This document shows, piece after piece, positions 3,918-49,660 of a stretch of DNA of 64,000 bases. The notes beneath the pieces are model-generated. The model was not told the DNA's origin. It made no database searches and was given only the letters and a program-made list of their open reading frames with translations. The position numbers were made by a program, and so were the translations under genes. Positions within the stretch are counted from its first letter, which is position 1. The number at the start of each line of letters is the position of its first letter. Source of the stretch: an uncultured bacterium (GTDB lineage: Bacteria > Electryoneota > Electryoneia > Electryoneales > Electryoneaceae); contig CAZIDZ010000003.1 of assembly GCA_964538455.1 (NCBI GenBank), positions 129,832-193,831 of the forward strand, in the 5' to 3' direction.

Positions 3918-3923
3918 AGCTGC

Positions 3924-5003: not shown

Positions 5004-5074
5004 ACAGTCACTTACGCTCCGGCACAGGGCTTGCAAACTCTTCCGGGAACCCAACCTTGGAGTGAGTGCGCCCT

Positions 5075-11094: not shown

Positions 11095-11098
11095 CCGG

Positions 11099-19818: not shown

Positions 19819-20835
19819 ATGCGCGTCACCAACCAGATGAAACGCAACCAGCTTCTGATCGACCTGAATCGGCTTCAGAACGACGTCTTCGTCTCGCAGC
19901 AGGTCCTGACCACTGGCACCGAGGTTGCCAAGCCTTCGGACAACCCGTCCGATGCGCGAAGGATCATGCTGCTCCAGAACTCGAGCAGCCGACGCGATCA
20001 GTACCTCCAGAACATTTCCGACGGCGTCGCGAGGATGAGTTACTCCGAAATCCAGACGCAGTACGCCCAGGACCTGCTCGTGGAAGCCCGCACAATTGCG
20101 CTGACCGCCTCCAACGGCGCCACCACGGACAGCGACCGCGCGTCCATGGCCGAGCGCATCGACGGCATGATTTCCGAACTGCTCTCGATCGCTAACAGCG
20201 CGCACGAAGACCAGTACATCTTCGGTGGCTTCAACACCCAGGACCCGCCCTATCAAGCGATCTTCGACCCCACCACCAACGATGTCATCGGGGTCCAGGA
20301 TCAGCCGCAGAACATGGACGGCGAGGTTTACCGGACCACCGCAGACGGCCAGCAGGTGCGCATCAACGTTCCCGGAAAAAACCTGTTCATGACCGGCACA
20401 ACCGGGGATTCGGGAGACATGTTCCAGATCCTCATTGATCTGCGCGATGCACTCCGGGACGGCGTCGATAATGACGAGCTCCAACAGAAGCAGCTCGATC
20501 CGCTCGATCCAAGCTACGATCCTCTGGCGACCTGGTCGCCCGCCCAGTACGACTCGCTGACGACGATTCAGCAGTCCCTGCAGCGGCTGGATGACGCCGC
20601 GGAAACGGCGAGGAACGTTATCACGCGCATCGGCACCGACGTCCAGCGCCTCCAGGCCACCGAAAACCGGCACCAGGATGTCGCGGTCAAGGAGCAGGAG
20701 CACCTCGGCGACACCCAGGGTGCCGACCTGACCGAGTGGATTTCAAAATTCCAGATGCAGACCCTCGCTCTGCAGCAGGCGATCCAGGTGGGCAATACAG
20801 TCCTTCAGTCGTCATTCGTGAACTTCATGCAATAG
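19819..20835 (+). CDS. flgL: Flagellar hook-associated protein 3 FlgL
   Basis: MRVTNQM...DNPSDARRI is a flagellin-like N-domain. Its size and its position after flgK fit FlgL. Confidence 0.85.
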   Translation: MRVTNQMKRNQLLIDLNRLQNDVFVSQQVLTTGTEVAKPSDNPSDARRIMLLQNSSSRRDQYLQNISDGVARMSYSEIQTQYAQDLLVEARTIALTASNGATTDSDRASMAERIDGMISELLSIANSAHEDQYIFGGFNTQDPPYQAIFDPTTNDVIGVQDQPQNMDGEVYRTTADGQQVRINVPGKNLFMTGTTGDSGDMFQILIDLRDALRDGVDNDELQQKQLDPLDPSYDPLATWSPAQYDSLTTIQQSLQRLDDAAETARNVITRIGTDVQRLQATENRHQDVAVKEQEHLGDTQGADLTEWISKFQMQTLALQQAIQVGNTVLQSSFVNFMQ

Positions 20836-20845
20836 GAGCGGGCGC

Positions 20846-23800
20846 ATGCCGGACAAGCGTGACCTGAACCGAGACGCCGCTGAATTTGCTTCGCGTTTTA
20901 CGGAGAGCAGCCCGGAAGAGAGCTCCGGGGACAGCGTTCAAAATGTGCTCATCCTTGCCCACGCGATCCCCACGCTGGCGAGCATCGGAGAGAAAAAGCG
21001 GGCTACGGACGCCGCGTTGAAGCTGCTCCGGATGCGCGACGATCGCGGTGGCTGGGATGACCCCTTACCCACGGTGATCGCTCTGGAAGCGTTCGTCGCC
21101 CTCCGGCTGCGTGGAATGGACCTGGACGATGGCCCGCAGGCTGTCGAGTACGCCGTCCGTTTTCTCCGCGATTCACGCCCGCTGGAGCTGCTCGAGCATG
21201 AGCTTCGCCTCGCGCGCAGCCTCGTTCTCGCTGGGTTGGCAAGGCAGGACGCGGCATTGATCGACGCCGGACTGCTCCGCGCACGATCGGCGCTCGAAAA
21301 AGAGCCGCGCTGGTCCCGCGACCTCGATATCGCCCTGCACGGCCTGCTCGCGGTCGCCGACCTGGTTACGATCACAAAGGACTCCACGACCGAGCAGCTG
21401 ATCTCGAGGCTGCTCGCTGAACACCACCTCGATCAGCCGGAACCGGAAGGGATCGAGGCGCAATCGGTGGCGGTGCTCGCCCGCGCGGGAACCGTGCTCG
21501 AAAAACTGGGCAGGCGCGACGCGGCGGTGGCCATGTACAAAAGAGCCGTGGAAAGCGCCGATGCCGCTTCCCTTGACACCGCTTCGCTCAAGTTCCGGGT
21601 GGAGTTGGGGGTGCGCATCTTCGGTGAGCCCGGTGATCAAGGCGGCGCGGGCGAAATCCCCGCGGGCGGCGAACAACCGGACCAAACGGAGCAGCAGACA
21701 GCGGAGCTGAAACCGGTGAGGTATGACGAGCTGCCTGCGGAGGCGACGTTCAATCGCTCCTCGGTCAGTGCGGTCATTCTCCAGAACGGACCCGCTGAAT
21801 CGGTGATCCAGACCCTGGAAGACCTCGCCGCGCAAACCGAACTGCCGGAGCAGATCGTCATCCTCTGGACCTCTCCCTCGTCACGCGCGCAGCTCCCCGA
21901 CCTGCCCACCGATCTCGCCGAGATTCACGGCGCCTTTGGATGGGGTGAATCCCCCTGGAGACTGGCGTTCCAGGTGGCACGGGCCGACTGGGTCTGGATG
22001 ATCCCCTCCGGCGTGCGCATCCTGCCGGACACCCTGATGGCGCTGAAACAGTCCGGCGGCCGCAAGCAGGCCATCTGCCTCTCGAAAAAAGAAGGCGGCC
22101 TCGACAAGGCCTTCGCTGGTCTCGTCGCGGAACCCACCCTCGCTGCGGAACGGTGCCTGATCAGGAGAGACGTTGCAGCTCACCTGCGTACTCCCCGGGC
22201 GAATGGGAGTTTCTGGGATATTGCGGCGTCCGTGGGAGAAAGGGAAGACTGGCGCGAGGTCGTGGAGAATGGCGAAGTGGGCATTCAGCCGGTCGAACAG
22301 GGTCTCGAATCCCTGCTCGCCGCCGTTCACTCCCTCGCCGGCCACTACCGGCTCTTCCCGGTGGACGGTCCCGAGCAGCGAAAACTGCGCCACGACAGCG
22401 CCGCGCGGTTGCGTGACGAACTCTACCGCGCCTGCCAGGAATGGGAACAGCCTCTCGTTTCGGTGATTCTCGCAGGCTCCACGTCCGGCGGGTCGCTGGA
22501 AAAATCCTTCAGTTCGCTGCTGCGCAACACTCAGGAAATCCCCTTTGAGGTAATCGCGATCCTGCCCGCCGGGGTGGACCTTTCCTTGCGGAATGCGATG
22601 CTCGACGCCGGGGTGCTCATCGTCCCCGGTTCCGAGATCCCGACCGCGGATCTCAACCGCGCCGCCGCCAAGGCGAAGGGACAGATGCTGGTGATCCTCG
22701 AAGCCGGAAGCGAGCCGGAAGAGGGGTGGCTGCAGGCGATGATGGCCGCCGCGTTCGACGAACCAAACGCCGGAATCGTCGGCGGCCTGGTGCAAAGCCC
22801 GGCGATGACCATCCTTCACGCCGGGATTGCCTTCGACGACAGAGCGAATCCGATTTACCTCCACCAGGGCGCGCCGCTCGTCCTCAGCCATATCCATCGC
22901 CGCAGGGCATACCAGGCGGTGGGAGGGGGGATCGTCCTGGCCTCCAGACCGCTTTGGGAGCTGCTTCGCGGACTCGATGAGGGATTCGACGACGCCGTGG
23001 AAAACGCCCTGATCGATTTCTGCCTGCGCGCCCGCGAGAAGGATGTTCGAGTCATCTATGAACCGAAGGCAAAAGCCACCCATCACGTCTCGCAGCCATC
23101 CGCCCCAGAAGCGAACCGGCATTTCATCAAGAAATGGCGGGATCGGGTCGTTCCCGACGTCGAATTGTACGCCCGGATGGACGGCTACCGCGCGGAATCC
23201 AGGGAGCGAAGAATCGTCCTGGTTCCCATCGGACCCACGCTCAAAGCAAACGGGGAGGAGGCCATGAGCAGCTCCTCAACTTCGACACCGTCCCATGTCA
23301 TCAAGGCCGATTCGTCGGACAACGATCTGGCGTCCCTGCTCACCCGTGCTGAAACGCTGATGCGTGACGGGCGTTATGACATCGCCGAGGAGGCCTTGGT
23401 ACAGGGGCAGCACCAGGTGAACGGAAATGTGGGCGCCCGGGTGATCTACTGGACGCTGCTAGGCGACAGCAAATTCCGGCTGAACAAGACCGAAGACGCC
23501 TACGATTGCTACAAGAAGGCCGTGAAGGACGATCCGAGTGCGGAACGCGCCTGGATCGGAATCGCTACCTATCACCTGGTCAAGGGCGAACTCGAGAAAG
23601 CGGAAGACATATTCCGCCGCGTAATCTCGCTCAACGATTCGAGCACTCGCGGCTACCTCGGGCTGGGCAACGTCTATCTCCGCCGCGGCCAGCCCGGTGA
23701 CGCGCTCCCCAGCTTCGTCGAAGCCTCCCGCCTCGATCCCGGCTACCGTCCGACGGTTGTCGGCCTCGTCGCCGCCGCCGTCCAGGCGGAACAGATGCAG

Positions 23801-24004
23801 GAGGCGCTGACCCCGTTGCAGCAGTACCTGCAAATTCATCCCGAGGACAACGAGGCTCGTTTCCACTACGCCGCGATCCTGTTCGGCAACCAGGACAACG
23901 CGCACGCGAAAGAAGAAGCGATGAGGGTGCTCCGGGTGAAACCCGATCACCAGGGAGCGCGCGAACTGCTCGACAACCTGTCCCGGAACAGGGATGCATC
24001 CTGA
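20846..24004 (+). CDS. Large multidomain protein: N-terminal helical-repeat region, two GT-A (family 2-like) glycosyltransferase domains, C-terminal TPR repeats
   Basis: The GT2-like cores are VSAVILQNG.. and PLVSVILAGS..DDAVENALIDFCLRAREKDVRVIYEP. The C-terminal TPRs follow WTLLGDSKFRLNKTEDAYDCYKKAVKDDP. Its 10 nt gap to flgL is the basis for the block being co-transcribed with flgKL. Confidence 0.75.
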   Translation: MPDKRDLNRDAAEFASRFTESSPEESSGDSVQNVLILAHAIPTLASIGEKKRATDAALKLLRMRDDRGGWDDPLPTVIALEAFVALRLRGMDLDDGPQAVEYAVRFLRDSRPLELLEHELRLARSLVLAGLARQDAALIDAGLLRARSALEKEPRWSRDLDIALHGLLAVADLVTITKDSTTEQLISRLLAEHHLDQPEPEGIEAQSVAVLARAGTVLEKLGRRDAAVAMYKRAVESADAASLDTASLKFRVELGVRIFGEPGDQGGAGEIPAGGEQPDQTEQQTAELKPVRYDELPAEATFNRSSVSAVILQNGPAESVIQTLEDLAAQTELPEQIVILWTSPSSRAQLPDLPTDLAEIHGAFGWGESPWRLAFQVARADWVWMIPSGVRILPDTLMALKQSGGRKQAICLSKKEGGLDKAFAGLVAEPTLAAERCLIRRDVAAHLRTPRANGSFWDIAASVGEREDWREVVENGEVGIQPVEQGLESLLAAVHSLAGHYRLFPVDGPEQRKLRHDSAARLRDELYRACQEWEQPLVSVILAGSTSGGSLEKSFSSLLRNTQEIPFEVIAILPAGVDLSLRNAMLDAGVLIVPGSEIPTADLNRAAAKAKGQMLVILEAGSEPEEGWLQAMMAAAFDEPNAGIVGGLVQSPAMTILHAGIAFDDRANPIYLHQGAPLVLSHIHRRRAYQAVGGGIVLASRPLWELLRGLDEGFDDAVENALIDFCLRAREKDVRVIYEPKAKATHHVSQPSAPEANRHFIKKWRDRVVPDVELYARMDGYRAESRERRIVLVPIGPTLKANGEEAMSSSSTSTPSHVIKADSSDNDLASLLTRAETLMRDGRYDIAEEALVQGQHQVNGNVGARVIYWTLLGDSKFRLNKTEDAYDCYKKAVKDDPSAERAWIGIATYHLVKGELEKAEDIFRRVISLNDSSTRGYLGLGNVYLRRGQPGDALPSFVEASRLDPGYRPTVVGLVAAAVQAEQMQEALTPLQQYLQIHPEDNEARFHYAAILFGNQDNAHAKEEAMRVLRVKPDHQGARELLDNLSRNRDAS

Positions 24005-24031
24005 CCGCCTGTCTTGCGAAAGGAGGGCAGG

Positions 24032-25474
24032 ATGACAGGCACCCGTAAAATTGGCGTCGTCCAACTCGCCCGGTTCGGCGACCTGGTCCAGACCACACCG
24101 TTCCTCCAGCGACTCCGCGAACAGGAACCGGGTGCCAGTATCTCGATCATCGTTGATCGGCGAGTCGAAGCTGTCGCCAACCTGCTCGATGACGTGGACG
24201 AGGTTATCGGCGTCGATCTCGCCGGGATTCCCGCTCACCTGACCGGGACCATCCTCGCCGATTACGAAAACCTGCGCGCCTGGGTCAAATCCTGGCGGCG
24301 GGATACGGATTACGACCGGCTGATCCTGCTGAACCACGGGGCGATTCCCGAAGCCGTCGCGTCATTTCTCGGAGCTGAACGCCGCGAGGGCCCGGGACGC
24401 GGTTCCGCCTTCGACCGGCCGCACCGCCTGCTTCGGGCCGCTCTCTCAAACAGGGCATTCATTCCGCTCCATCTCAGCGAGGTTTGGGCGGCGTACGGTC
24501 CTCGAAAATTCCCCGTCCCAGCCCCGAAAATAAAGCCCGTAAAGTCCGGCACAACCTTTGCATTTCTAGATGGAAAAGGGCATGTAAGAGATAATAAAAA
24601 CAAGGTATTTGCGGTCAATTTGGGGGCGGGTGCGGCAGGAAGGCGAATGTCCACGGAAAACCTTGCCGCTCTCGTCCGAACGCTGGTCAATGGCAACCCG
24701 TATAGGCTGGTCGCAGTCGGTACGGATGACGACAGGCAAACCGCCGCCCGGCTGATGCAATCCGTACCGCTGAATAATCGCAATCGTGTAATCGATCTTA
24801 CTGGAAATACGACACTTGAACAACTGACGGGCGTGCTCGAGGCGGTGGACGTCCTGATTTCAGCGGACACGGGCACGTTGCAGCTTGCGGCGGCTGCGGG
24901 AACGGCTTCGGTTGGCCTCTTCTTTGCCAACGCCAACCCAATAGAAACAGGAGCTTATTCCCCCGGCGCCGTGGCTGTTGTCCGCCGCGACACCCTGCGT
25001 CCCGGACCGCAGCCGTCGGCCGGCGACATGGTGTTGGCGGCGAAAGTCGCGACCAGGCTGGTTCAGGGGCAACCCTTGGAGGATCTGGAAGATGAAAGCG
25101 ACACCTGTTTTGTGCTGGTGGCCCGATCTGCACCTGTGGGTGTCGAGTACGAACCCCTGCGACCCGGCTCAAAAGGGAATCTGGGGCAGGGCGGACGATG
25201 GCTTCCTCTGCTCAGGCAGTTCCTCTGGGCGGGAGATCGGATCGGCGAGACGGTTCCGGGCAGCCGCAAAGCCTGGACCGATCTCTTCGGTAGTGAGGAC
25301 GCCCTCCGCCTGAGGGATCTTCACGATCAGATCGTGCAGAACGGGGGAAAACAGCTTGAATCGTGGGATGAGGAAACCCGCTGGCTCGCCCACATCGTCG
25401 CGGAGTTTCCCAATGAGACCGCACTCTGGACAGCTCAGATGCTGGCGAGCAAAGCCGGGAGGATTCACGCATGA
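24032..25474 (+). CDS. GT9-family (ADP-heptose heptosyltransferase-like) glycosyltransferase
   Basis: The N-terminus IGVVQLARFGDLVQTTPFLQRL is the RxGDxV hallmark of Glyco_transf_9. There is a Shine-Dalgarno (AAGGAGGG) before ATG 24032. Confidence 0.7.
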   Translation: MTGTRKIGVVQLARFGDLVQTTPFLQRLREQEPGASISIIVDRRVEAVANLLDDVDEVIGVDLAGIPAHLTGTILADYENLRAWVKSWRRDTDYDRLILLNHGAIPEAVASFLGAERREGPGRGSAFDRPHRLLRAALSNRAFIPLHLSEVWAAYGPRKFPVPAPKIKPVKSGTTFAFLDGKGHVRDNKNKVFAVNLGAGAAGRRMSTENLAALVRTLVNGNPYRLVAVGTDDDRQTAARLMQSVPLNNRNRVIDLTGNTTLEQLTGVLEAVDVLISADTGTLQLAAAAGTASVGLFFANANPIETGAYSPGAVAVVRRDTLRPGPQPSAGDMVLAAKVATRLVQGQPLEDLEDESDTCFVLVARSAPVGVEYEPLRPGSKGNLGQGGRWLPLLRQFLWAGDRIGETVPGSRKAWTDLFGSEDALRLRDLHDQIVQNGGKQLESWDEETRWLAHIVAEFPNETALWTAQMLASKAGRIHA

Positions 25475-25776
25475 GTGAAATGAACCTGGACACGGAGGTG
25501 GCGGCTGCTGCGGAAAGCAGCCTCGGCCGTCCAGACAGCGGTGTGAGACGTGTGACGACGACCCCGTGGGCCGTGTTCGTCCACGCCTCGCCGGTCTACA
25601 TCACGAGCGATCAACCGTCCCGTCCTCGCCGTGGGCGTCCCGCGTCCCATCGAAATGTCGCGCACAATCGCCGCGGGATGCGGTTGCCCGATGATTACCC
25701 CTACGCGAATCGCCGTTGGAGCGAACGACTCCGTGTGCTGCGCGCGGTTCGTCACGATGCGGGAGAACTGTCATGA
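25471..25776 (+). CDS. Possible small basic protein, translationally coupled on both ends
   Basis: Its ATG overlaps the upstream stop (ATGA), and its TGA overlaps the downstream ATG (ATGA). It is Arg/Pro-rich with no motif, so it could instead be a frame artefact in a 300 bp spacer. Confidence 0.25.
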   Translation: MSEMNLDTEVAAAAESSLGRPDSGVRRVTTTPWAVFVHASPVYITSDQPSRPRRGRPASHRNVAHNRRGMRLPDDYPYANRRWSERLRVLRAVRHDAGELS

Positions 25777-27392
25777 ATCTGCTGGCGCTCAACGACACGT
25801 TTTTCGGCGATTCGCTCAACCGCCGCGACCTCTCCATCCTCCGCGTGGGTCCGGGACCCGATAACGACATCGTCATCGATCCCGGGGAAGAGGATCTTCG
25901 CGACGTGCTCGAACGTGCCGGATTCCGTCCCGATAGAATCCTGCAGGTCGACAGCATCGACGAGCGCGTTTTCTTCAAGGGACTCGACGAAATCGAAGCA
26001 CCGCGTGCGTTCTACGCCATTGACGGCCCGATCAACGGGTTCTGGCAGCTTCCCTGGGCGCACAACTTCGACCGCGTCTGGATCGATCAGAAGGATTCTT
26101 TCGACCGTATGGCGGAGAACGGGATCGCCTGGGCAGAATGGCTGCCGCTCGCGGCGGATGAGAATTTGTATCACCCCCCAACGCCTGCCGCAGAGCGCGA
26201 CCTCGACGTCGTCTTCGTGGGAACCGTCGATCCGGAGCGCCGTCCGAAACGGTCCGCGATTCTCTACCGGCTCGAACAAGTGGCGAACCTGACCGTCGTC
26301 AACGGCGACGGCAAGCGTTCCGTCCCCGCCGGGGAGGTTGCGGATATCTACCGCCGCGCGAAACTCGTCGTCAACGAACTGCTCTTCGACGGCGTCAACC
26401 TGCGCACCTTTGAAGCAATGGCCTGTGGTGCGGTGGTGATGACAGAGGAGAATCGTGGCGAGCAGGATCTCTTCGCGGATCTTGGCGCGCTGCAGACCTA
26501 CAACGCGAAAAACCTGGAGACCGTCGTCGCCCGTTTGCTCGCCGATCCCCGCGAACGGACGCGCATTTCCGAGAGTGGGGCCGAGGTCATTCGTGAAAGC
26601 CATCTTGTCGCGCACAGGGCGCGCAACCTGCTCAACCAGTTGGACGAGCTGAAACCTCGCCCCGGACGTGACACCGTTCCTTCGAAAATGCACGCGATGT
26701 GGGGCGTTTGGCAGGCCGGGCTCAAGTGGCAGACATTCAGGTCCACCGCGAAACAGGCGCAGGAGTACCTCGCCGCGCACCTCAACGATATCCCGATCGA
26801 CCGGAAGATCGAGCTGTTCGAAGCGACAGGAAACGGTCCGCAGGCGATGCACCTCCTTTTCGACCAATTCAAGGAAAACCGCCTCCCGGATCGGATGCTG
26901 CCGGTGCTCGCCTCCCTCGCCTTGGCGCAGGGCAGCAACGACCTGGCGGGGGATGTGCTCGGCGTGAAAAACGCCACCGCCTCCGACCTGCATGTCGCGA
27001 TCGCCAACCGTCTGCTTCATGGCGGCAGGGACCTCTCGCCCGGATTCAATCGCACCGCCGGACCGGTCAGCGCCTGGAACGCCTTCGAACATTACCAGCA
27101 CGCGTTCACCTTGGACGAGGAAAATCTCGCCGCCCTGGAAGGCATGGACAGGATTCTGGAGAAGCACAACGCATCGGAAATCTCCATGCCGCTCTGGCAG
27201 AAGTGGCACGCTCGCCATCCGCGTGATCCCGAGGCCATCCGCCGCTTCATCAACCGGGCGCGCAACGGCTATTTCAACGTGCCCACGGAATCGCTCGAAG
27301 GGAGGGGTGCGGAATACCCTTTTTCGGCAGTGTCGGCGCGTTCAACCGACCGGACGCCGTCCAGTGGCCAATCCGCAAGGAGTCGAGCGTGA
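25773..27392 (+). CDS. CgeB/DUF3880-like glycosyltransferase domain protein with helical C-terminal region
   Basis: VVFVGTVDPERRP...NLRTFEAMACGAVVMTE...SHLVAHRARNLL matches the Glyco_trans_1_2 (CgeB) pattern. There is a Shine-Dalgarno (GGAGA) before ATG 25773. Confidence 0.65.
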   Translation: MNLLALNDTFFGDSLNRRDLSILRVGPGPDNDIVIDPGEEDLRDVLERAGFRPDRILQVDSIDERVFFKGLDEIEAPRAFYAIDGPINGFWQLPWAHNFDRVWIDQKDSFDRMAENGIAWAEWLPLAADENLYHPPTPAAERDLDVVFVGTVDPERRPKRSAILYRLEQVANLTVVNGDGKRSVPAGEVADIYRRAKLVVNELLFDGVNLRTFEAMACGAVVMTEENRGEQDLFADLGALQTYNAKNLETVVARLLADPRERTRISESGAEVIRESHLVAHRARNLLNQLDELKPRPGRDTVPSKMHAMWGVWQAGLKWQTFRSTAKQAQEYLAAHLNDIPIDRKIELFEATGNGPQAMHLLFDQFKENRLPDRMLPVLASLALAQGSNDLAGDVLGVKNATASDLHVAIANRLLHGGRDLSPGFNRTAGPVSAWNAFEHYQHAFTLDEENLAALEGMDRILEKHNASEISMPLWQKWHARHPRDPEAIRRFINRARNGYFNVPTESLEGRGAEYPFSAVSARSTDRTPSSGQSARSRA

Positions 27393-29236
27393 ACGGATCT
27401 GACGGCATCCTTGAAAGAAACCTCGCTGTGTTGCGCAAACGCGGGCAGGGTGATCTGGCGAACGCCCTGGCCGCTTTGCCCGTCTCTGAAAGGGTACAGG
27501 CGTCTATCGCGCGCTCGGGCGATCCTACGTTGAAAGTCAACGGTCAAAACATTCACAGCCCCTACGATCCGAAACGGGAGGCGGCGGCGCTCGCGGAAAA
27601 ACTGCTCGGCGGCATCGATCCGGCGAAACCGGTTCTGTTCGTCGGGGGTGGCTGCGGCTACGTCCTGGAGCAGGGAAAAGACTGCCTGCAAAACACGCAG
27701 ATCGTCCTTGCCGAACCGGTTCCCGAGGTTCTCGCCGCGGCCATCCGTTCGCGTGATATGAGCGAAATCTTCTCCCTTGCCAACCTCGCTTTCGGCGATT
27801 CGATCCCCTCGCTTGCGGACAATATCCGCTCGCTGCTTGGGGACCGCGCCGAGCAGGCTCAGGTCGTCGTTCTTCCTTCGGCACGATCGTCGGCTCCCCG
27901 AGAGGTGGACGCCCTGCTGAGCGCGCTTTCCACGAAAACGGGAAACGCCGACCTCGGAAACCTGCGCATCCTGCTCGTTGGACCTGTGTACGGGGGCAGT
28001 CTTCCGGTCACCCGGTATGTGCACAGCGCGCTGAAAAAGCTCGGCCACACCGTCGAATGGCTCGATTTCTCTCCGCTTCATGAAAGCGTACGGTTTTTCG
28101 ACGGTATCACTCGGAAGCAGGAGCACCGCAAGGCGTTGCAGGGGCAGTACACCCACCTGATGGCTCAGACCGTCCTTGCGCGCGCTGAGCTCTTTCAGCC
28201 ACAGATCGTCTTTTTCATGGCGCAATCCCCCGGCGCTCCGAATGTCCTGGAGGAGCTGCGCAATGCGGGGATCCCGACCGCTTTCTGGTTCGTCGAGGAC
28301 GGCAAGCTCTTCGATTACGGCATGAAGATGGCTCCCTATTATGACGTTTTCTTCCACATCCAGGGGGCTTCCTTTACCGAACAATTGAAGCAGGCCGGAG
28401 CCCGCCATGTCCATTACCTCCCGCTCGCCGCCGACCCGGACGTTCACAAACCGCTGCAGCTGACCGATGACGAACAGGCCGAATACGGCAGCGACATCAG
28501 CCACGTCGGCGCCGGGTACCCCAACCGCCGCAGATTCTTCCCCTCGCTGCTCGACTTCAACTTCAAGCTCTGGGGCAGCGACTGGGAGCAGCCCGGTCCG
28601 TTGGGCAAGGTGCTGCAGCGCGGGGGCGAACGGATCTCCACCGAGGATACCGTGAAAATCTTCAACGCGTCGAAGGTGAACCTCAACCTGCACTCCTCGA
28701 CTTTCACCGACGGCGTGAACCCGGACGGCGATTTCGTCAATCCGAGAACCTTCGAATTGGCCGCCTGCGGAGCGTTCCAGCTCGTCGACGAACGCAGCCT
28801 GCTTCCTTCGCTGTTCAGCGTGGATAGCGAGATGGTCACGTTCCTCGGTGTCTGGGACTGTCGAGAGAAAATCGCCCATTACCTGGAGCACCCGGAAGAG
28901 GCGAAAGCGATCGCCGACGCCGCGAGGAACAGGGTGTTGCAGCAGCATACCTATGCCCATCGGATGCAGGAAGCGCTCTCGGTGATCGCGGCGGCCTGCC
29001 CCATCCCTGAAAACCGGGTGATGCGGAACACGGTGGCTTCGCTGGTCGCACAGGCGGGGAAAAACCGCGAACTCGCGGAAATCTTCGGACAGATGGGGCA
29101 GCCGGAGGACGAGTTGACGTTGTCGGAGATCGCGGATACGATCCGCCACGGACAGGGCAAAATGAATGAGAGCGAAGCGCTGCTGCTGCTGATGGATGAA
29201 TTCCACACGTGGGCGAAGGAAAAGGGAGTCGCATGA
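27389..29236 (+). CDS. Fusion protein: N-terminal Maf/DUF115-like (motility accessory factor-like) domain + C-terminal CgeB-like glycosyltransferase domain
   Basis: The N-terminus has KPVLFVGGGCGYVLEQ (DUF115-like Gly-rich loop). The C-terminus has RTFELAACGAFQLVDE...QQHTYAHRMQEAL. The GTG start overlaps the upstream stop. Confidence 0.6.
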   Translation: MNGSDGILERNLAVLRKRGQGDLANALAALPVSERVQASIARSGDPTLKVNGQNIHSPYDPKREAAALAEKLLGGIDPAKPVLFVGGGCGYVLEQGKDCLQNTQIVLAEPVPEVLAAAIRSRDMSEIFSLANLAFGDSIPSLADNIRSLLGDRAEQAQVVVLPSARSSAPREVDALLSALSTKTGNADLGNLRILLVGPVYGGSLPVTRYVHSALKKLGHTVEWLDFSPLHESVRFFDGITRKQEHRKALQGQYTHLMAQTVLARAELFQPQIVFFMAQSPGAPNVLEELRNAGIPTAFWFVEDGKLFDYGMKMAPYYDVFFHIQGASFTEQLKQAGARHVHYLPLAADPDVHKPLQLTDDEQAEYGSDISHVGAGYPNRRRFFPSLLDFNFKLWGSDWEQPGPLGKVLQRGGERISTEDTVKIFNASKVNLNLHSSTFTDGVNPDGDFVNPRTFELAACGAFQLVDERSLLPSLFSVDSEMVTFLGVWDCREKIAHYLEHPEEAKAIADAARNRVLQQHTYAHRMQEALSVIAAACPIPENRVMRNTVASLVAQAGKNRELAEIFGQMGQPEDELTLSEIADTIRHGQGKMNESEALLLLMDEFHTWAKEKGVA

Positions 29237-30810
29237 ACGTGCTCCTGATCAATCTGGCGCGCATCGGGGATCTCGTGCAGGTGTCGCCTGTTTCCCAGGG
29301 CCTCATGGATGAGCTGGGAGCGCGGGTGACGTTGCTCGCCCCGGAGAAGTACGCGGAGTTCGCGCGCCGACTGTCAGGAGTCGACGAAGTCATCGGCGTG
29401 GATGATTCAGACCTCAATCGTGAAGGTATCGTCCTGTCGTCGCTGATACACTCCGATCCGAAGCTGAGTCAGGCGATCGCAGACCTGCGAGCGCATTCCT
29501 TCGACCTCGCGATCAACCTTACCCACGATGAGCTCTCCACCGCGCTGGCGAGCGCGATCGGGGCGAAAGCTGTGCGCGGCCGTTTCGGACAACCCGGACA
29601 TATCCAGGTGAGGGGGGATGCCTTCCGCTATTTCTACACCGTGCTCGAGCATCGCATGATGAACGGCATCAACCTTTGCGACATCTACCGGATCGGCGCG
29701 GGAATCGCCAACGGCCGCCGTCCGGTCTCGATGGCGCCTGTGCCAGAGGATCGGCGGGCAATACGCGATCGAATCGGCGAAACATCAAGGCCCGTGATCC
29801 TGCTGCACCCCGGCGCAAACCATCCTCACCGCAGGTGGCCGGTGTCGAAGTACGGAGCGCTGGCGAAGATGCTGCACGCGGAGGGCGCGGAGGTGCTCGT
29901 GCTCGCCGGTCCGGCCGAGCGTGATCTCGCTGGCGCTGTCGTGCGTTTATCCAACGGTTCTGCGCGCGCGATGGATAAACCCGTACCTGTTGAACTGCTG
30001 CCCGCGCTGTTTGCGGAGGTAAACCTCGTCGTCACCAACGACACCGGTCCGCTCCACATCGCCGCGTCTGTCGGCACGCCAACCGTGTCGCTGTTCCTCG
30101 CCATGGCGCGCCCCCAGGACACAGGCCCCTGTTCGCCCGAACATCTGATCCTGGAGACGCTCGAAAGCTGTCATCCCTGCCCGGAGCACAGCGCATGCGA
30201 TTCTCCCGTGTGTGGTGATTCGATCCCGGTAGAGGTGGTGTTCGCCGCCGTCCGGGCGAGATTGTGCGAATCGTTTCCCGCTGAATACGTCTTCAAACCC
30301 TTCGGCGGACGCTTCCGGGCGCTCGTCACTCGCTGGGGCGCGAACGGGATGATCGAGCTCGAAGAAATCTACCGTTCCGTTCCCATACCGGATGGCTTCG
30401 ATGTCGGCTCCGCATGGAAACCGGTCTGGCTCTCGCTGTTCGCGGGGGATAGCCCTTCCGGGGAGGTGTTGAAACAGCTCCGGGGGACTTTCAGCATCTC
30501 GGAGCAGCGATCGATGCTCGCGGTGGTCACCCTCTGCCGGGGAATTCTCGCTCGTCTAAACGGGGAACCGCTGCAGGACGAACAAGGCAATCCGCTCAGC
30601 GTGGCCGTGCTCGAGGATTTCGCTCTTCAGGAGGAGCAGCGTTCGCAATCGGCGAAAACCCTGCTGCTGCCCTTCCGGTTGGAGCGCGAAGCGCTCTACG
30701 CCCGGGGGATCGATGCCGTGCGAAACGAAGCGGAGAGCCGCTTTTCCCGCTGGATCGGCACCCTCGCCGCGCTCAGCCCGGACGCTGTCCGGGAGGAGGT
30801 GGCGGCATGA
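29233..30810 (+). CDS. GT9-family heptosyltransferase-like protein with Cys4 cluster
   Basis: MNVLLINLARIGDLVQVSPV and TNDTGPLHIAASVGTPTVSLF are GT9 motifs. The Cys cluster is CHPCPEHSACDSPVC. The ATGA overlaps the upstream gene. Confidence 0.7.
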   Translation: MNVLLINLARIGDLVQVSPVSQGLMDELGARVTLLAPEKYAEFARRLSGVDEVIGVDDSDLNREGIVLSSLIHSDPKLSQAIADLRAHSFDLAINLTHDELSTALASAIGAKAVRGRFGQPGHIQVRGDAFRYFYTVLEHRMMNGINLCDIYRIGAGIANGRRPVSMAPVPEDRRAIRDRIGETSRPVILLHPGANHPHRRWPVSKYGALAKMLHAEGAEVLVLAGPAERDLAGAVVRLSNGSARAMDKPVPVELLPALFAEVNLVVTNDTGPLHIAASVGTPTVSLFLAMARPQDTGPCSPEHLILETLESCHPCPEHSACDSPVCGDSIPVEVVFAAVRARLCESFPAEYVFKPFGGRFRALVTRWGANGMIELEEIYRSVPIPDGFDVGSAWKPVWLSLFAGDSPSGEVLKQLRGTFSISEQRSMLAVVTLCRGILARLNGEPLQDEQGNPLSVAVLEDFALQEEQRSQSAKTLLLPFRLEREALYARGIDAVRNEAESRFSRWIGTLAALSPDAVREEVAA

Positions 30811-33761
30811 AGCGGCCCGTCGCGATCCTCAACATGACACGCATGGGCGACCTGTTGATGACCGGTCCGATGCTGCACCGTCTCCGCGAACAGTGGCCCG
30901 GGCACCCTCTCCACCTGATCGCGGTGGACGGATTTATGCCGATCGCGCAGGGAATGGACGTCGACAGGGTAATCTCACTCGATTACGACAGGTTGACCAC
31001 GCTGGCGGTGTCCGCGGGTGAAGCACGCCGCGTCAACCTGATCGACGCACTCGGCGAATTCCGTGACGTGATTCGCGAACTGCAATCCGTTGACTACGAG
31101 GCGATTTACAATGTCAGCCACACGCGGATCAGCGCGATCATTGCGACCCTGCTTAACGGCGAGGTTCGCGGGGGCCTGCACCTCGACAGCCAAGGGTTCA
31201 GGGTCATCGCGGGACGTTGGGCTCGCAACTGGTTCGCAGGGAATCTCAATCGCGGAGTGAACCCCTTCCACCTCGTCGACATGAACATCGGAATCGCCGG
31301 CGGCGGCGTCTTTCCGGCCGATCAACGGAAGCTTCATTACCACGTTCCCGGCGACGCGCGTGAGGAAGCCGCGTCCATCCTGGAATCCTTAGGGATCGGC
31401 GATCAAACTCCGTTCATCGTTGTCCAGGTGGGGGCCTCGACGGAGGATAAACGTTGGGAGCCGGAAAAATTCGGCCAGGCCGCGGCTCAGATTCTCAAGG
31501 CTGCCGGTGTGCGCCCGGTCTTCGTCGGCACGCACTCCGAACGCGAATGGGCCGGGACCGCCGCCCGGATCGTGGGCGGTGAGGCGGCCGTGCTAGCGGG
31601 GCAGACCACGCTTCCCGTGTTGGCGGCTGTGCTCGAGCGCAGTTCGCTGCTGGTCACCAACGATACGGGCACGATGCACCTCGCTCAGGCGGTGGGCACC
31701 CGCTCGCTCGACATTACCCTCGGCGCGGCGCTCTCGGACGAGACCGGCCCCTACGGAAGCGGAAGCGTGATCCTCGAACCCGACATTGCCTGCTTCCCCT
31801 GCGATTTCAACGCCGTTTGCCCGCATCACAACTGCCACGGCTTGATCACCCCGGATCTGGTCGCGAGCGTTGCCTGCGCCATGCTCGAAGGCCAGCCACT
31901 CGAGCAGGTGATCGGCCGCCTCGATACCCGCGGCGCCCACATCTGGGTAACCGGATTCGACGCCGATGGATGGTGGAGAAAGTATCCGCTCGCGGAAAAA
32001 ACGCTGCAAGCGAAGGACGTGATCCGTGAATGCTACCGGGAAATTCTGAAAGCGGATCTCGAGCCGGACCTGCGTCCAAACGGGGTCGATTCGCAGGCGG
32101 TGTTGCAGTCCCTGGGGTCATACGACTCGGCCAGTGCAGACAGTACTGCCGCGCTGCAGCCGGACACTGAACTTGGAACCGAACTGCTCGCTCTGATACG
32201 CAGGGCCGCCGGCTTGGCTGAACGCATCGTGCGAATTTCCCCGGACGAACCCGGGGCCGTGGAAAAGCTGGCTGATTACGGGCAGGAACTGGCGCAGCTC
32301 GACGAAAGCATTCTCCAGTCGTTCCTGCACAGCACGCTCTGGGCGCCCGTGTTGGCGCTGTTCCGCTTCGATCTCGAAAACCTGCCGGAAGACGGTCTTG
32401 AGGCACAGTCCCGGCGTACTCTCGAGTTGCACGAACGGCTTGAAACCCTTGTTCAGTCCCTGCTGAGCCTCCTCGCTGACGTGGCGCGGTCTGTCCCGTC
32501 GAACGGTTCACACGGACGGGGCCGCGACCGCGTAATTACGAAGACGGGAACAGCTCACGACAGCTACGACAGCTTCCGACGGCCGCGAATGCGCGGCGAG
32601 CGGCTGAACATCGTGCTCCCGACCAGCGGCTACTATTTGCAGCAGGAGATCGCGACGGCGTTGACACGACTCGGCCACCGCGTCCACCCGTTGCCGTTCG
32701 CCGGCAGGGAGGACGTCATCGAGCGGCTGTTGCTGCTCAGCCGCGACGCGGATCTGCTCGTCACCGTCAATCACCTCGGATTCGATCAGTTCGGCGAACT
32801 CGCGCATCTGCTGGATCGCATCGAACTGCCCTACATCTCCTGGTACGTTGACCGGCCCGCGTTCATCCTGCTCGATCACGCCATCGGTCCCGCGGAGAAC
32901 GCCCTGATCGCCACCTGGGAGCAGTCGACGATCGAGGAGATCCGGTCCTACGGATTCGAAAACGTGGTCTATCTGCCGCTGGCGACCGACGAAAAACGTT
33001 TTTCGCCCAAGACAGGCCAGTTTGACCCCGGTACGCCTCACTGGGTGGCGAATTCGATGGTTTTGCCGAGCCGCGAATGGCAGGAAAAAGCCTCCCTGTA
33101 CGACGGCGATCCCCTGCTCCAGAGAGCGGTTGCCTTGCAGCGGGCGGGGCGCCTTGAACCGGAGGCGGTGCTCGCGGCGGCGGCTTCGGCGGAAGGCGTT
33201 GAGCTTGACGACTGGGACAAACGCAGGAAATTGAACGCGGCGTCGGCGATTGCCCTGACCGCAACGCGCCAGTTGCGCCGCGATCTTGCCAGCGAAACTG
33301 CACCGCTGGGACTGCAGCTTCACGGGGATCAGGGGTGGGGCGAAATCGCACCCCGGGCGGCGCTCAACCCCCCGGTGGAATACCCCAGGGGCTTGGTCGA
33401 GGCCTATCGCAATTCGTTGCAGCTGAACGCCACCAGCTACCAGATGCCCACCGCCGTCAACCAGCGGGTGTTTGACGTTCCCGCGGCCGGCGGGGTGCTT
33501 GTCACCGATGCCCAGGAGGCGCTCGGCGAACTCTTCGATCATGAGACGGAATGTATTGTTTATACGGAACCTGGTGAAATCGCCGAGAGCATTCGTTGGG
33601 TGCGCAAAAACCCTCAGGATGCGCAGCGGCGGTCGATCCGGGCACGTCAGCGGATACTCAACGAACACACATACACGCACAGAATGCGAATGCTGCTTGA
33701 ACGGGCTCGCCTGCACGGAGTTCACGCTTCTGTGTCTACAGCGGGAGGAGCGGTACGATGA
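30807..33761 (+). CDS. Fusion protein: N-terminal GT9 heptosyltransferase-like domain (with Cys cluster) + C-terminal CgeB-like glycosyltransferase domain
   Basis: VAILNMTRMGDLLMTGPMLHRL and TNDTGTMHLAQAVGTRSL are GT9 motifs. The Cys cluster is CFPCDFNAVCPHHNC. The C-terminus has QRVFDVPAAGGVLVTD...NEHTYTHRMRMLLE. Confidence 0.7.
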   Translation: MKRPVAILNMTRMGDLLMTGPMLHRLREQWPGHPLHLIAVDGFMPIAQGMDVDRVISLDYDRLTTLAVSAGEARRVNLIDALGEFRDVIRELQSVDYEAIYNVSHTRISAIIATLLNGEVRGGLHLDSQGFRVIAGRWARNWFAGNLNRGVNPFHLVDMNIGIAGGGVFPADQRKLHYHVPGDAREEAASILESLGIGDQTPFIVVQVGASTEDKRWEPEKFGQAAAQILKAAGVRPVFVGTHSEREWAGTAARIVGGEAAVLAGQTTLPVLAAVLERSSLLVTNDTGTMHLAQAVGTRSLDITLGAALSDETGPYGSGSVILEPDIACFPCDFNAVCPHHNCHGLITPDLVASVACAMLEGQPLEQVIGRLDTRGAHIWVTGFDADGWWRKYPLAEKTLQAKDVIRECYREILKADLEPDLRPNGVDSQAVLQSLGSYDSASADSTAALQPDTELGTELLALIRRAAGLAERIVRISPDEPGAVEKLADYGQELAQLDESILQSFLHSTLWAPVLALFRFDLENLPEDGLEAQSRRTLELHERLETLVQSLLSLLADVARSVPSNGSHGRGRDRVITKTGTAHDSYDSFRRPRMRGERLNIVLPTSGYYLQQEIATALTRLGHRVHPLPFAGREDVIERLLLLSRDADLLVTVNHLGFDQFGELAHLLDRIELPYISWYVDRPAFILLDHAIGPAENALIATWEQSTIEEIRSYGFENVVYLPLATDEKRFSPKTGQFDPGTPHWVANSMVLPSREWQEKASLYDGDPLLQRAVALQRAGRLEPEAVLAAAASAEGVELDDWDKRRKLNAASAIALTATRQLRRDLASETAPLGLQLHGDQGWGEIAPRAALNPPVEYPRGLVEAYRNSLQLNATSYQMPTAVNQRVFDVPAAGGVLVTDAQEALGELFDHETECIVYTEPGEIAESIRWVRKNPQDAQRRSIRARQRILNEHTYTHRMRMLLERARLHGVHASVSTAGGAVR

Positions 33762-34366
33762 ATGTGATTGTGGATGGCAAACCGGTCGAGCTGCCTGCGG
33801 AGGGGCAGAAGACGATCGGCGACGTCGTCGGGTCCGTGTCCAAGGATCTGGACGCGAAACGGCGGATCATCAAGGTGGTCGTCGACGGCCAGGACATCAC
33901 CGGTCAGGCGGAGGCCCATCTGCAGAGCAGGAGCGGCGGCGAAAAGGTCGAGATCACGACGGGCCTGGCCAGCGAACTGGCGCTCGAAACTCTGGACGGG
34001 ATCCGGGATTTCCACGGTGCGCTCGAGTTGGAGTTGAACCGCACCGCGGACGAATTCCGGATGGGTAACAACCAGAAATCCAACGAGATGTTCGCCCGCT
34101 GCCTGGATGGATTGCAGATCCTGCTGCGCACAACGGTTTCCGTCGCCAACCTGCTGCAGGTCGACAGCGCCAAGGTGAAAGCGGGATCCGGCAACATGAA
34201 TGCGGTCACCGAAAACATCGCCCGCGTCCTCCAGGAGTTGATCGAGGCGCAGATCAATCGGGATGCGATTCTGATCGCCGATCTGATCGAGTACGAACTT
34301 AAACCTCTGTTGGACGATTGGCAGGACGCCCGAGAACAGCTCCGGCTGATCGGAAAGGCGGCCTGA
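33758..34366 (+). CDS. Hypothetical protein (beta-rich N-terminus + helical C-terminus), last-but-one gene before flagellin promoter
   Basis: The ATGA overlaps the upstream gene. I saw no known motif. Confidence 0.5.
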   Translation: MNVIVDGKPVELPAEGQKTIGDVVGSVSKDLDAKRRIIKVVVDGQDITGQAEAHLQSRSGGEKVEITTGLASELALETLDGIRDFHGALELELNRTADEFRMGNNQKSNEMFARCLDGLQILLRTTVSVANLLQVDSAKVKAGSGNMNAVTENIARVLQELIEAQINRDAILIADLIEYELKPLLDDWQDAREQLRLIGKAA

Positions 34367-34967: not shown

Positions 34968-35801
34968 ATGAGTACTCGCATCAACCACAACATCCTCGCA
35001 CTCACCGCCCAAAGGAATATCTACCGAACCCAGACAGATTTGGACCGCACTCTCACGCGGCTCTCCTCGGGTTTGCGGATCAACTATTCCTGGGACGACC
35101 CCGCGGGGTTGGCGGTGAGCGAGAGATTCCGTGCCCAAATCGCCTCAATGGTCGAAGCGGAACGGAACGCAAATTACGACGTCAACCTGCTGGCGACTGC
35201 AGAAGGGTCGTTGCAGACCATTGACAACACACTGACGCGTATGCGCGCGCTGGCGATCCAGGCGTCCAACGGCGCCCTGGCATCCCAGGATCGGGCTTCG
35301 CTGGACGAGGAATTCCAGCAGCTCGCTTCAGAGATCACGCGTATCGCGCACACAACCAATTACAACGGTCTTTACCTGCTGAGTGGGGACTATTCCACGG
35401 CTGGAATCAAGTTCCACATCGGCACGTACAACGTGAGTGGGCAGGATTACTACTACGTCACGTTGAACGACATGAGCGCCAGCGCGCTCGGGTTGACTGG
35501 CCTGAATCTGTTGAACACTGTCAGCGCCCAGAACTCGATCGCTTCGCTGGATGCGGCAATCAACACCAAGGATACTGAGCGGACACGCATCGGTTCGCAG
35601 GTTTCTCGTCTGCAGAACACGATCACGAACCTGCAAGTCGCCAAGGAAAATGCGTCTTCGTCCGAGTCGACCATCCGTGACGCGGATATCGCCGAAGAGA
35701 TGAGTGCTTTCGTGCGATCCCAGTTGCTGATGCAGACTGGCATCTCGATGCTTTCCCAGGCGAACATGGTGCCGCAAATCGTTGCGGGTTTGGTCGGGTA
35801 A
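34968..35801 (+). CDS. fliC: Flagellin
   Basis: The N-terminus MSTRINHNILALTAQRNIYRTQTDLDRTLTRLSSGLRINYSWDDPAGLAVSERF and the C-terminus AFVRSQLLMQTGISMLSQANMVPQIVAGLV are flagellin-like. At 277 aa the variable D2/D3 domain is minimal. Confidence 0.9.
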   Translation: MSTRINHNILALTAQRNIYRTQTDLDRTLTRLSSGLRINYSWDDPAGLAVSERFRAQIASMVEAERNANYDVNLLATAEGSLQTIDNTLTRMRALAIQASNGALASQDRASLDEEFQQLASEITRIAHTTNYNGLYLLSGDYSTAGIKFHIGTYNVSGQDYYYVTLNDMSASALGLTGLNLLNTVSAQNSIASLDAAINTKDTERTRIGSQVSRLQNTITNLQVAKENASSSESTIRDADIAEEMSAFVRSQLLMQTGISMLSQANMVPQIVAGLVG

Positions 35802-35863: not shown

Positions 35864-35918
35864 GACACCCATGGAAGGCGCAGGTTCAGGGTGAGTTGCG
35901 CCTCCATGGGTGTTTTCT
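35864..35918 (+). terminator. Rho-independent terminator after fliC
   Basis: GACACCCATGGAAGGCGCA...TGCGCCTCCATGGGTGT forms a long GC stem followed by TTTTCTGT. Confidence 0.6.
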
Positions 35919-35984
35919 GTGAGGCCATCCCGATCGTTGCAGGTCGCTGACCCCGTCATGCCACGTGCATCCGGCGGAGGAGTC

Positions 35985-37634: not shown

Positions 37635-37703
37635 TAGACTGAGTCATACCACCGCCCTTGACGGCGGTGTTCAAGGCCGAGTACACTTGAAGAGGTGTGT
37701 GCC

Positions 37704-38084
37704 ATGCCTGTGCTGAATCCGTACAAGCAGTACGACGACGTCACCTTCGGAACGGCGCATCCGCTGTCGCTGGTCATCTCGACCTATGACGCTGCGATCC
37801 GCTCGCTGAAGGAGGTAATCCGCAGCCTCAAGTCGAACGACGTTGAAAATCGCGTCAAAAACGTCGACCTTTCTTTTGAGTTGATCAGCGAACTGCGGAA
37901 GTCGCTGGATCCGGAAAAAGGCGGCGACATTGCCGAAAAACTGAGCTCGCTGTACGAGTTCTTTATCCGCGAGATCACCGTGGCGAACGCGTATCAGGAT
38001 GCCGACCGCCTCGAACCGGTGATCAAAATATTGCAGGAGTTGCGCGACTCCTGGGTTGAGGTGCGCAGGCAGGTGAAATCCTGA
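37704..38084 (+). CDS. fliS: Flagellin-specific chaperone FliS
   Basis: NPYKQY...TAHPLSLVISTYDAAIRSLKEV...LYEFFIREI is the FliS pattern. Confidence 0.85.
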   Translation: MPVLNPYKQYDDVTFGTAHPLSLVISTYDAAIRSLKEVIRSLKSNDVENRVKNVDLSFELISELRKSLDPEKGGDIAEKLSSLYEFFIREITVANAYQDADRLEPVIKILQELRDSWVEVRRQVKS

Positions 38085-38120
38085 TCGTTCCAAAATACCC
38101 CGATGGGAGGGATCGCCCAG

Positions 38121-46628: not shown

Positions 46629-46790
46629 GTTCTACCCTCGCTTCCCGGGTTCATACCCCGAAGACGCCGGAATTGATGACAGTTGGTGCACAGGATACAC
46701 GGTCAATCCTACTCTGCTCACGGAAAAGGGCTGATCTTGAATTCGGAATAGACTCTGCAAAGCCAGCGAATTTTGAGACGTACAAGGATG

Positions 46791-48257: not shown

Positions 48258-48266
48258 TGGCGCAAT

Positions 48267-49490: not shown

Positions 49491-49660
49491 TCCAATTACG
49501 AGGATAAGCTGTCGTTGTGATCCTATCTTTCATCCAGCTTGCAAAGGTAAACCTTGCCCCTGCTGGACGCAAGGTATACTTTTGCTGCTGCCGCCGGGAG
49601 TATGCTGTTTAGGTTATTGATATTAAAGCGTATTAAGAGTGCATTTGAACGGACACGCCG

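Follow-up and report, generated by a model that had tools for sequence, protein, structure and literature searches.

A Maf-type N-terminal domain on a GT-B glycosyltransferase encoded in the flagellar gene cluster of an uncultured Electryoneota bacterium

A three-part glycosyltransferase in the flagellar cluster

The stretch of DNA analysed here (the window; 64,000 nucleotides of contig CAZIDZ010000003.1, from an uncultured bacterium of the family Electryoneaceae, phylum Electryoneota) has a flagellar gene cluster in its first 38 kb, identified by Pfam searches and, for FliS, by tblastn. Within this cluster, seven genes on one strand lie between flgL (19819-20835) and the flagellin gene (34968-35801). 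Our subject is one of the seven, a gene at 27389-29236 (+) that we call the target. An earlier note, made from the letters of this DNA, had described its product as a Maf-like (DUF115) domain fused to a CgeB-like glycosyltransferase (GT) domain. We find that the target is a single soluble glycosyltransferase of three parts, and not a Maf enzyme joined to a second enzyme. It consists of a domain of the Maf N-terminal type (residues 1-182; 27389-27934, +), a flexible linker (residues 183-192; 27935-27964, +), an apparently intact GT-B glycosyltransferase domain (residues 193-540; 27965-29008, +) and a helical C-terminal tail (residues 549-612; 29033-29224, +).

The target is one open reading frame (ORF) of 615 amino acids that fills this interval exactly, as the earlier note had it, and the motifs quoted there are all present: the glycine-rich loop VLFVGGGCGYVLEQ is residues 82-95, FELAACGAF is residues 455-463, and HTYAHRM is residues 520-526. 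Translation starts at a GTG codon, with a Shine-Dalgarno sequence (AAGGAG) 6 nt upstream. In 4-nt overlaps, the GTG runs into the stop codon of the upstream gene at 25716-27392 (GTGA), and the ATG (29233) of the downstream GT9 gene runs into the TGA stop codon of the target (ATGA). The start at 29233 is also the independent gene call on a public contig that encodes an identical target protein and was independently assembled from a sequencing run (Logan). An antisense ORF (27269-29206, 645 amino acids) was rejected as an artefact of high GC, because homology, the Shine-Dalgarno sequence and the operon structure are all on the + strand. The target has more than 3000 homologues, and the best 120 of them are mostly 590-630 amino acids long and align across 93-100% of the query. 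Many of the >3000 carry a precomputed PF20157 + PF13524 annotation, so the fusion architecture that the earlier note had proposed looking for in databases is not peculiar to this genome; as it is visible in precomputed annotations, the gene itself is not a discovery. An NCBIfam scan of the target gave nothing meaningful (best match flavodoxin, E = 0.09).

The earlier note had identified the N-terminal half with DUF115/MAF_flag10 (Pfam PF01973), the catalytic domain of Maf. This part of its claim fails: PF01973 has no match at E ≤ 10, either in the whole target or in residues 1-210 alone, and it matches none of 35 N-terminal domains from the target's family. By the same procedure, true Mafs encoded in related loci match PF01973 at E-values of 1e-24 to 1e-44. 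Because this catalytic domain is absent, the target is one GT-B enzyme that carries the non-catalytic N-terminal domain of Maf. The relationship to Maf itself, including the glycine-rich loop, does hold, through the Pfam family Maf_flag10_N (PF20157; hereafter Maf_N), which is matched by 29 of the 35 N-terminal domains (best E = 1.4e-11). The target's own score against PF20157 is 16.4-16.9 bits (residues 77-129), below the gathering cutoff of 23.5, so its assignment rests on family-level profiles and on structure. A search of the Protein Data Bank (PDB) with the single target sequence gave only noise (acetoacetate decarboxylase, E = 0.7), and a family profile was therefore required. When the N-domain profile was compared to all PDB sequences, the best match was the Magnetospirillum magneticum Maf (5mu5, E = 3.8e-5), followed by non-significant matches to class-I methyltransferases (E = 0.2-2). 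Alignment by hhalign of the target family's N-domain to the N-domains of ten PF01973-confirmed Mafs gave a probability of 100% (E = 3.2e-40 over 177 columns), and a hidden Markov model (HMM) of the N-domain finds Pfam-confirmed true Mafs in related loci, for example the ORF at 3192-5090 of locus L063 (E = 1.6e-15).

Predicted structure points the same way. An AlphaFold model of the target, built from 67 family members, has a mean confidence (pLDDT) of 93. Fold searches with the full model returned only GT-B enzymes, so the N-domain was modelled alone (pLDDT 94). In a Foldseek search of the PDB with this lone domain, 5mu5 was the top match (E = 1e-5) and the sole one at E ≤ 1e-3; spermidine synthases, COMT and other class-I methyltransferases formed a second tier at E about 2e-3. 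In the predicted fold, two helices and a beta-hairpin accompany a parallel sheet of four strands with flanking helices, which agrees with how the Maf N-domain has been described, as a degenerate Rossmann-like fold with a function stated to be unclear (PMC11339370). Conserved motifs in the domain are HSxYDPxxEA (residues 56-65), GxGxGY (86-91) and E109-P; within the family, neither GxGxGY nor E109, which closes the next strand, varies. A methyltransferase Pfam model is touched by one of the 35 family N-domains (E = 0.006). We conclude that residues 1-182 are truly homologous to the accessory domain at the N-terminus of Maf (PF20157). The domain boundary is the linker at residues 183-192 (near residue 190) and not residue 330, where the earlier note had placed it; pLDDT falls to about 61 over the block 181-190, and to <50 at residues 184-186.

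The remainder of the protein agrees with the earlier description of a CgeB-type GT-B enzyme. Two Pfam families match it above their cutoffs: DUF3880 (YkvP_N, PF12996; residues 299-377, E = 2e-14, 54 bits with a cutoff of 25.2) and Glyco_trans_1_2 (PF13524; residues 380-530, E = 3.7e-39, 134.4 bits with a cutoff of 25, aligned to 143 of the 144 positions of the profile). In the full model, residues 193 to about 540 form a two-lobed GT-B enzyme whose best folds in the PDB are the GT4-type enzymes 7QSG (a mannosyltransferase of M. hassiacum), BshA, MshA and PglA, with E-values around 1e-10 and a target-normalised TM score of about 0.65. Invariant across the 67 sequences are G202-G203, D448-x7-E456 and, where the C-terminal lobe begins, R380; by analogy with GT4 enzymes they are the putative donor-binding and catalytic positions. 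H520 is also invariant. The target shares with the GT4-type enzymes the acidic-x7-E motif (D448...E456) and a glycine-rich first loop, but identity to them is only 10-15%, they use small molecules or lipid-linked sugars as acceptors, and a Maf-type N-domain is present in none of them. On the evidence of the model and the profiles, residues 193-540 are a GT4-like GT-B domain of the CgeB/YkvP type that looks intact, and the target is a predicted enzyme. An HMM of the tail (residues 549-612) matches 80 of 80 orthologues and has no further match among the ORFs of these loci or of the window, so the tail marks the orthologous family. The idea that it is a docking motif common to the neighbouring proteins was rejected, because it occurs only in orthologues. 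No similarity was found between this 64-residue helical tail and the C-terminal domain of Maf.

Maf, the motility accessory factor, is a transferase of nonulosonic acids to flagellin. Compared to Maf (M. magneticum 5MU5, Aeromonas caviae Maf1 and Clostridium botulinum Maf), the target has a homologous N-domain over about 177 columns, with the common motifs NLxxL, HSxxDPxxEA (in part of the Mafs) and GxGxGY...VEP. Both proteins are soluble, similar in length (about 600-650 amino acids) and encoded among flagellar genes. They differ in that the central PF01973/MAF_flag10 catalytic domain of Maf has a GT-B fold enzyme in its place in the target. Maf has an alpha-helical C-terminal domain; the fold search with the full target model returned only GT-B matches. 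Maf is also encoded together with a pathway for cytidine monophosphate (CMP)-nonulosonic acid, whereas no nonulosonate biosynthesis genes were seen in the target's window, there being no nonulosonate synthase or cytidylyltransferase among its annotated ORFs. Since the defining catalytic domain was tested for and not found, the target does not, as an enzyme, belong to the Maf family; and since this domain is absent and no nonulosonate genes were seen in the window, its donor is probably not a CMP-nonulosonate. With CgeB and YkvP of Bacillus subtilis, the target shares the catalytic families PF13524 and DUF3880, both above threshold. It differs from them by its extra Maf-type N-domain and family-specific tail, and the loci that encode its family are flagellar ones, in lineages that do not sporulate. 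We saw no sporulation genes in the window. The label 'spore maturation protein CgeB', which databases give to homologues of the target, is an automatic name transfer only.

Distribution of the family and of its N-terminal domain

Relatives of the target were sought in one genome per species, which yielded at least 575 loci, from Nitrospirota, Nitrospinota, Calditrichota, Thermodesulfobacteriota, Binatia and others. The best 80 loci were kept for analysis. They come from Nitrospirota/Thermodesulfovibrionia, Nitrospinota, Calditrichota, Thermodesulfobacteriota, Binatia, Zixibacteria, Latescibacteria and unclassified lineages, and among the carriers are genomes that have been assigned to Caldithrix abyssi and Desulfobacca acetoxidans. 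Genes in these loci were called as the longest ORFs, and because such calls are crude the counts are approximate.

Gene order around the target is conserved. A GT9 gene directly follows the target orthologue on the same strand in 79 of the 80 loci, generally with a gap of tens to a few hundred nucleotides. In close relatives (L001-L018) the whole flgN-flgK-flgL-island-fliC-fliD arrangement is reproduced. In distant lineages the neighbours include FliS, MotA, MotB, a PilZ protein and a CheY-like regulator, sometimes with flagellin and FliD, and in Nitrospinota loci true Maf genes adjoin the target orthologues. Among the 55 loci of at least 15 kb, 39 have a flagellar gene (flagellin, FliD, FliS, FlgK, FlgL, FlgN or MotAB) within 10 kb. 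The flagellar setting given in the earlier note is correct.

We found that the N-domain is modular, and that it occurs on several kinds of enzyme. In the related loci it is present in true Mafs (Maf_N + PF01973), some of them encoded directly upstream of a target orthologue; in a paralogous family of DUF3880 + CgeB-like proteins of about 560 amino acids; in single-chain GT9 + Maf_N + DUF3880 + CgeB proteins (L015 and L039); in a GT2 + Maf_N + DUF3880 + CgeB protein (L025); and on a complete class-I S-adenosylmethionine (SAM)-dependent methyltransferase (Methyltransf_23, E = 4e-22) encoded at 8683-10011 of L076, directly upstream of the target orthologue. The combination with a class-I methyltransferase recurs in protein P0137, and these two proteins are candidate methyltransferases of flagellin or of a flagellar glycan with the same proposed adaptor. 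A search with the N-domain profile against 1.84 billion representative proteins (clusters at 50% identity) gave 9,091 matches at E ≤ 1e-3 and 4,691 at E ≤ 1e-10; among those of unusual length that we sampled were Maf_N + GT9, Maf_N + GT2 and GT17 + Maf_N + CgeB proteins, and a single Maf + tetratricopeptide repeat (TPR) protein. Further domain shuffling is seen in a protein of ~970-1140 amino acids (L035 6362-9772, and 16 other loci), the gene for which comes shortly before that of the target orthologue in loci of Nitrospinota and Nitrospirota. This protein combines GT4 (Glycos_transf_1), DUF3880/CgeB-like, class-I methyltransferase and TPR domains.

The earlier note had suggested that the CgeB module is a shared partner domain in this system. 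It does recur with several partners, but the Maf N-domain is the more general shared module. Since Maf_N is common to enzymes that differ in fold, donor and chemistry and yet are encoded in the same kind of locus, it is most simply a module for a feature that these enzymes share, which would be either the acceptor or the machinery around the acceptor. That the domain travels independently of the Maf catalytic domain, attached to other enzymes of flagellar loci, makes for a testable hypothesis that it is a targeting or docking module.

The glycosyltransferase island between flgL and the flagellin gene

The flagellar cluster in the window encodes FliR, FlhB, FlhA, FlhF, FlhG, FliA, FlgF, FlgG, FlgA, FlgH, FlgI, FlgJ, FlgN, FlgK, FlgL, flagellin, FliD and FliS. 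The end of the cluster has the order FlgN-FlgK-FlgL-[island]-FliC-FliD-FliS, in which the island is the block of seven same-strand genes that includes the target. Its left border is the gene for the FlgL-like hook-filament junction protein (19819-20835, +; Pfam Flagellin_N), which follows FlgN and FlgK. On the right are a short flagellin of 277 amino acids, the presumed acceptor (34968-35801, +; Pfam Flagellin_N and Flagellin_C), the filament cap FliD (35910-37634, +; Pfam FliD_N and FliD_C) and the flagellin chaperone FliS (37695-38084, +), which was found by tblastn with a Pfam-confirmed FliS from L042 (39% identity, E = 9e-28).

Directly after flgL is a gene for a 1052-amino acid protein (20846-24004, +), which has a weak GT2-like region at about residues 584-747 (Glycos_transf_2, below cutoff; E = 0.0035, 17.7 bits), C-terminal TPR families at about 820-1050, and roughly 500 N-terminal residues without family assignment. 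It has a weak MftF-like NCBIfam match, and homologues at the same position in close relatives; it could be the island's TPR-type flagellin-binding transferase. It is followed by a GT9 (heptosyltransferase-family) protein of 486 amino acids (24014-25474, +; PF01075, E = 1.5e-12), and then by a CgeB-like GT (25716-27392, +; Glyco_trans_1_2) with an unassigned C-terminal extension of about 250 amino acids and 24% identity to the GT-B domain of the target, which lies immediately downstream. Next to the target on its other side is the GT9 partner (29233-30810, +; PF01075, E = 1.3e-26), with a helical C-terminal extension and a CxxC...C...C pattern, and beyond it is a 984-amino acid fusion of GT9, helical extension, DUF3880 and CgeB-like domains (30807-33761, +; Pfam), which aligns to the GT9 partner through residue ~560. 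The CgeB-like proteins that the earlier note had placed directly upstream of the target and, fused to GT9, downstream of it are thus both there, with a separate GT9 gene between the target and the fusion. The last gene before the flagellin gene encodes a 202-amino acid protein (33758-34366, +) without any Pfam or NCBIfam match. It has homologues in 33-36 of the 80 loci, and a further 17 loci encode a shorter relative of ~144 amino acids with the shared motif DLIEYEL-PLL. The protein may serve the glycosylation system as a chaperone or accessory factor of its own.

The five consecutive genes from 25716 to 34366 are chained by 4-nt overlaps of start and stop codons, an arrangement typical of translational coupling. 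In total the island has seven GT domains: three GT9, three CgeB-like and one weak GT2-like. The target is the sole carrier of the N-domain, as no second Maf_N domain or true Maf was found in the window and the N-domain HMM has no match in the 984-amino acid fusion. By Pfam and NCBIfam, we found no flippase, polymerase, lipid-carrier transferase or membrane protein in the island.

The GT9 proteins of the system share a helical extension of about 180 amino acids. In these proteins (29233-30810 and 30807-33761, and also L040 1620-3093) the GT9 domain is closely followed by a cysteine cluster, CxxC-x5-6-C-x4-C (such as CHPCPEHSACDSPVC and CFPCDFNAVCPHHNC), which we take to resemble the iron-finger of the protein-heptosylating TibC/AAH family. 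The NCBIfam scores of the GT9 proteins favour lipopolysaccharide (LPS) heptosyltransferase models, all of them far below cutoff.

Elsewhere in the window, a 599-amino acid protein encoded between fliA and flgF (11015-12814, +) has sub-threshold matches to TPR, DUF6115 and DUF2802. Downstream of FliS, a 162-amino acid ORF (38103-38591, +) is without a Pfam match. Homologues occupy the corresponding place in 10-11 related loci, and the product is possibly a flagellar accessory protein. A FliA-like sigma factor is encoded at 9925-10716; a scan for the sigma-28 promoter TAAA-N14-16-GCCGATA, which is a consensus of the enterobacterial type, found no match in the window, including upstream of fliC, and scans of the window for sigma-70 promoters and terminators were no better than shuffles. 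A polysaccharide block at 44080-51178, mostly on the (-) strand, encodes an initiating transferase (Bac_transf), GT2, a Wzy-like ligase/polymerase, a protein for chain length (Wzz/GNVR) and a flippase-like protein. GC content is 46-50% at 46-50 kb compared to about 60% elsewhere in the window, which suggests that this block was acquired horizontally. It is on the other strand from the island, beyond housekeeping genes, and is not obviously linked to it.

A proposed role in flagellin glycosylation

We consider it reasonably probable that the target is a flagellin-directed glycosyltransferase with a Maf-type adaptor domain, working in a cytoplasmic flagellar glycosylation operon. In the mechanism we propose, the Maf_N adaptor would bring the GT-B domain to unfolded or chaperone-free flagellin, or to a complex of flagellin-modifying enzymes, before export by the flagellar type III system. 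The GT-B domain would then move one sugar from a nucleotide-sugar donor to a Ser or Thr of flagellin or to a growing O-linked glycan, and the adjacent GT9 and other transferases of the island would add the remaining sugars to complete an O-linked oligosaccharide. As neither a flippase, a polymerase, a lipid-carrier transferase nor a membrane protein was found in the island, we infer that the glycan is assembled on a cytoplasmic acceptor, for which the exported flagellin is the obvious candidate. This flagellin amounts in essence to D0/D1 plus a middle stretch of about 50 residues, several of which are Ser/Thr. On so short an acceptor, a large glycan could dominate the filament surface, which is speculation on our part.

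In Pseudomonas-type flagellin glycosylation islands, a block of GT genes lies between flgL and fliC. The target's island occupies the same position; it differs in content, with enzymes of the GT9, CgeB-like and Maf_N-bearing kinds. Direct binding of flagellin by Maf in vivo does not need the donor sugar (PMC4065374), and a precedent for joining a flagellin-binding module to a GT module is FlmG of Caulobacter crescentus (PMC7591256). The logic proposed for the target is the same as in FlmG, with an N-terminal targeting module and a C-terminal GT acting on flagellin in the cytoplasm. However, the binding module of FlmG is a TPR and the sugar it transfers is pseudaminic acid, and the target has no detected sequence relationship to it. 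FlmG carries its own TPR, whereas in the target's operon the TPR sits on a separate protein (20846-24004).

Several points weigh against this proposal. The target's own PF20157 score is sub-threshold (16.4 compared to 23.5 bits). The invariant GxGxGY...E pattern is typical of nucleotide or SAM pockets, so the N-domain may bind a small ligand instead of, or besides, a protein. No sugar-nucleotide biosynthesis genes were found in the island. Finally, 16 of the 55 long related loci have no detected flagellar marker within 10 kb.

The alternative that fares best, though we think it unlikely, is that the N-domain is mainly an oligomerisation or docking module, which assembles the GT9 and CgeB-like enzymes or tethers them to the export gate without recognising flagellin. 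The five translationally coupled genes, the nearly invariant GT9 partner next door and the single-chain GT9 + Maf_N + CgeB fusions would all suit such a module, as would the presence of just one Maf_N among the seven GT domains in the window, where the separate TPR protein could bind the substrate. Against this, stand-alone Mafs with the same N-domain act singly on flagellin in heterologous hosts (PMC7591256, PMC11339370), and the family-specific C-terminal tail of the target is an equally good candidate for docking to partners.

Slightly less probable still is that the operon makes a cell-envelope glycan, such as an LPS-core-like or capsular oligosaccharide, and that its flagellar location is incidental. 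The preference of the GT9 enzymes for LPS heptosyltransferase models (far below cutoffs), the known part of CgeB-type enzymes in maturation of spore-surface polysaccharide, and the 16 long loci without a flagellar gene nearby are in its favour. It is countered by the operon's location between flgL and fliC, which every close relative (L001-L018) shares, by the motility genes (MotAB, FliS, PilZ) nearby in distant phyla, by the true Maf genes adjacent in Nitrospinota loci, and by the island's lack of a flippase, polymerase, lipid-carrier transferase or membrane protein. The N-domain is also otherwise known only from flagellin glycosyltransferases.

We regard it as quite improbable that the target is bifunctional, with an N-domain that is an active SAM-dependent methyltransferase or aminopropyltransferase-like enzyme acting on flagellin or a sugar, alongside a glycosylating GT-B domain. 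The invariant GxGxGY and E109 are a classic class-I nucleotide-binding pattern, spermidine synthases, COMT and class-I methyltransferases are the second-tier matches, and methylation of flagellin occurs in some bacteria (PMC9290775). But only four parallel strands are predicted, compared to the complete seven-stranded core, and this fits the degenerate fold of the Maf N-domain (PMC11339370); the methyltransferase matches are non-significant whereas the Maf match is significant; and Maf_N is itself fused to a complete class-I methyltransferase in the L076 ORF and P0137, which would be redundant if Maf_N were a methyltransferase. The last alternative, that adjacent Maf-like and CgeB genes were merged into one ORF by a frameshift or misassembly in a high-GC region with long ORFs on both strands, is already refuted by more than 100 listed homologues, about 600-630 amino acids long and from many phyla, that match 93-100% of the query, the identical protein on the separately assembled Logan contig, a model that is confident over both domains, the short linker and the retention of the tail in 80 of 80 orthologues.

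Flagellin-directed glycosylation with a Maf-type adaptor remains our preferred reading of the target. A broader reading, which we advance tentatively and with more doubt than belief, has two parts taken together. The first is that Maf_N is a general adaptor for flagellin or other flagellar type III substrates, carried by at least six unrelated kinds of enzyme (PF01973 sialyltransferase-like, CgeB-type GT-B, GT9, GT2, GT17 + CgeB, and class-I methyltransferase). The second is that the pair of Maf_N-GT-B enzyme and GT9 protein represents an undescribed glycosylation system of Nitrospirota, Calditrichota, Nitrospinota, Thermodesulfobacteriota and related lineages, which would place a non-nonulosonate, possibly heptose-containing oligosaccharide on flagellins of ~277 amino acids. 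A literature search, of incomplete coverage, found no description of the target family, of the Maf_N/GT-B architecture or of a GT9-containing flagellar island.

The value of these results, in our assessment, is in the function they imply for the Maf N-domain and in the widespread, uncharacterised flagellar glycosylation system they point to. Flagellin O-glycosylation has been studied mainly through Maf and FlmG, which transfer nonulosonic acids, and we know of no examination of flagellar glycans in the environmental phyla that carry the target family. The misleading automatic label 'spore maturation protein CgeB' is corrected. The system is large, with at least 575 loci at the species level and a conserved core of GT-B enzyme and GT9 partner. 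If our reading is true, it would widen the known chemistry of flagellar glycans, and it would offer a portable targeting module for glyco-engineering of proteins in the cytoplasm.

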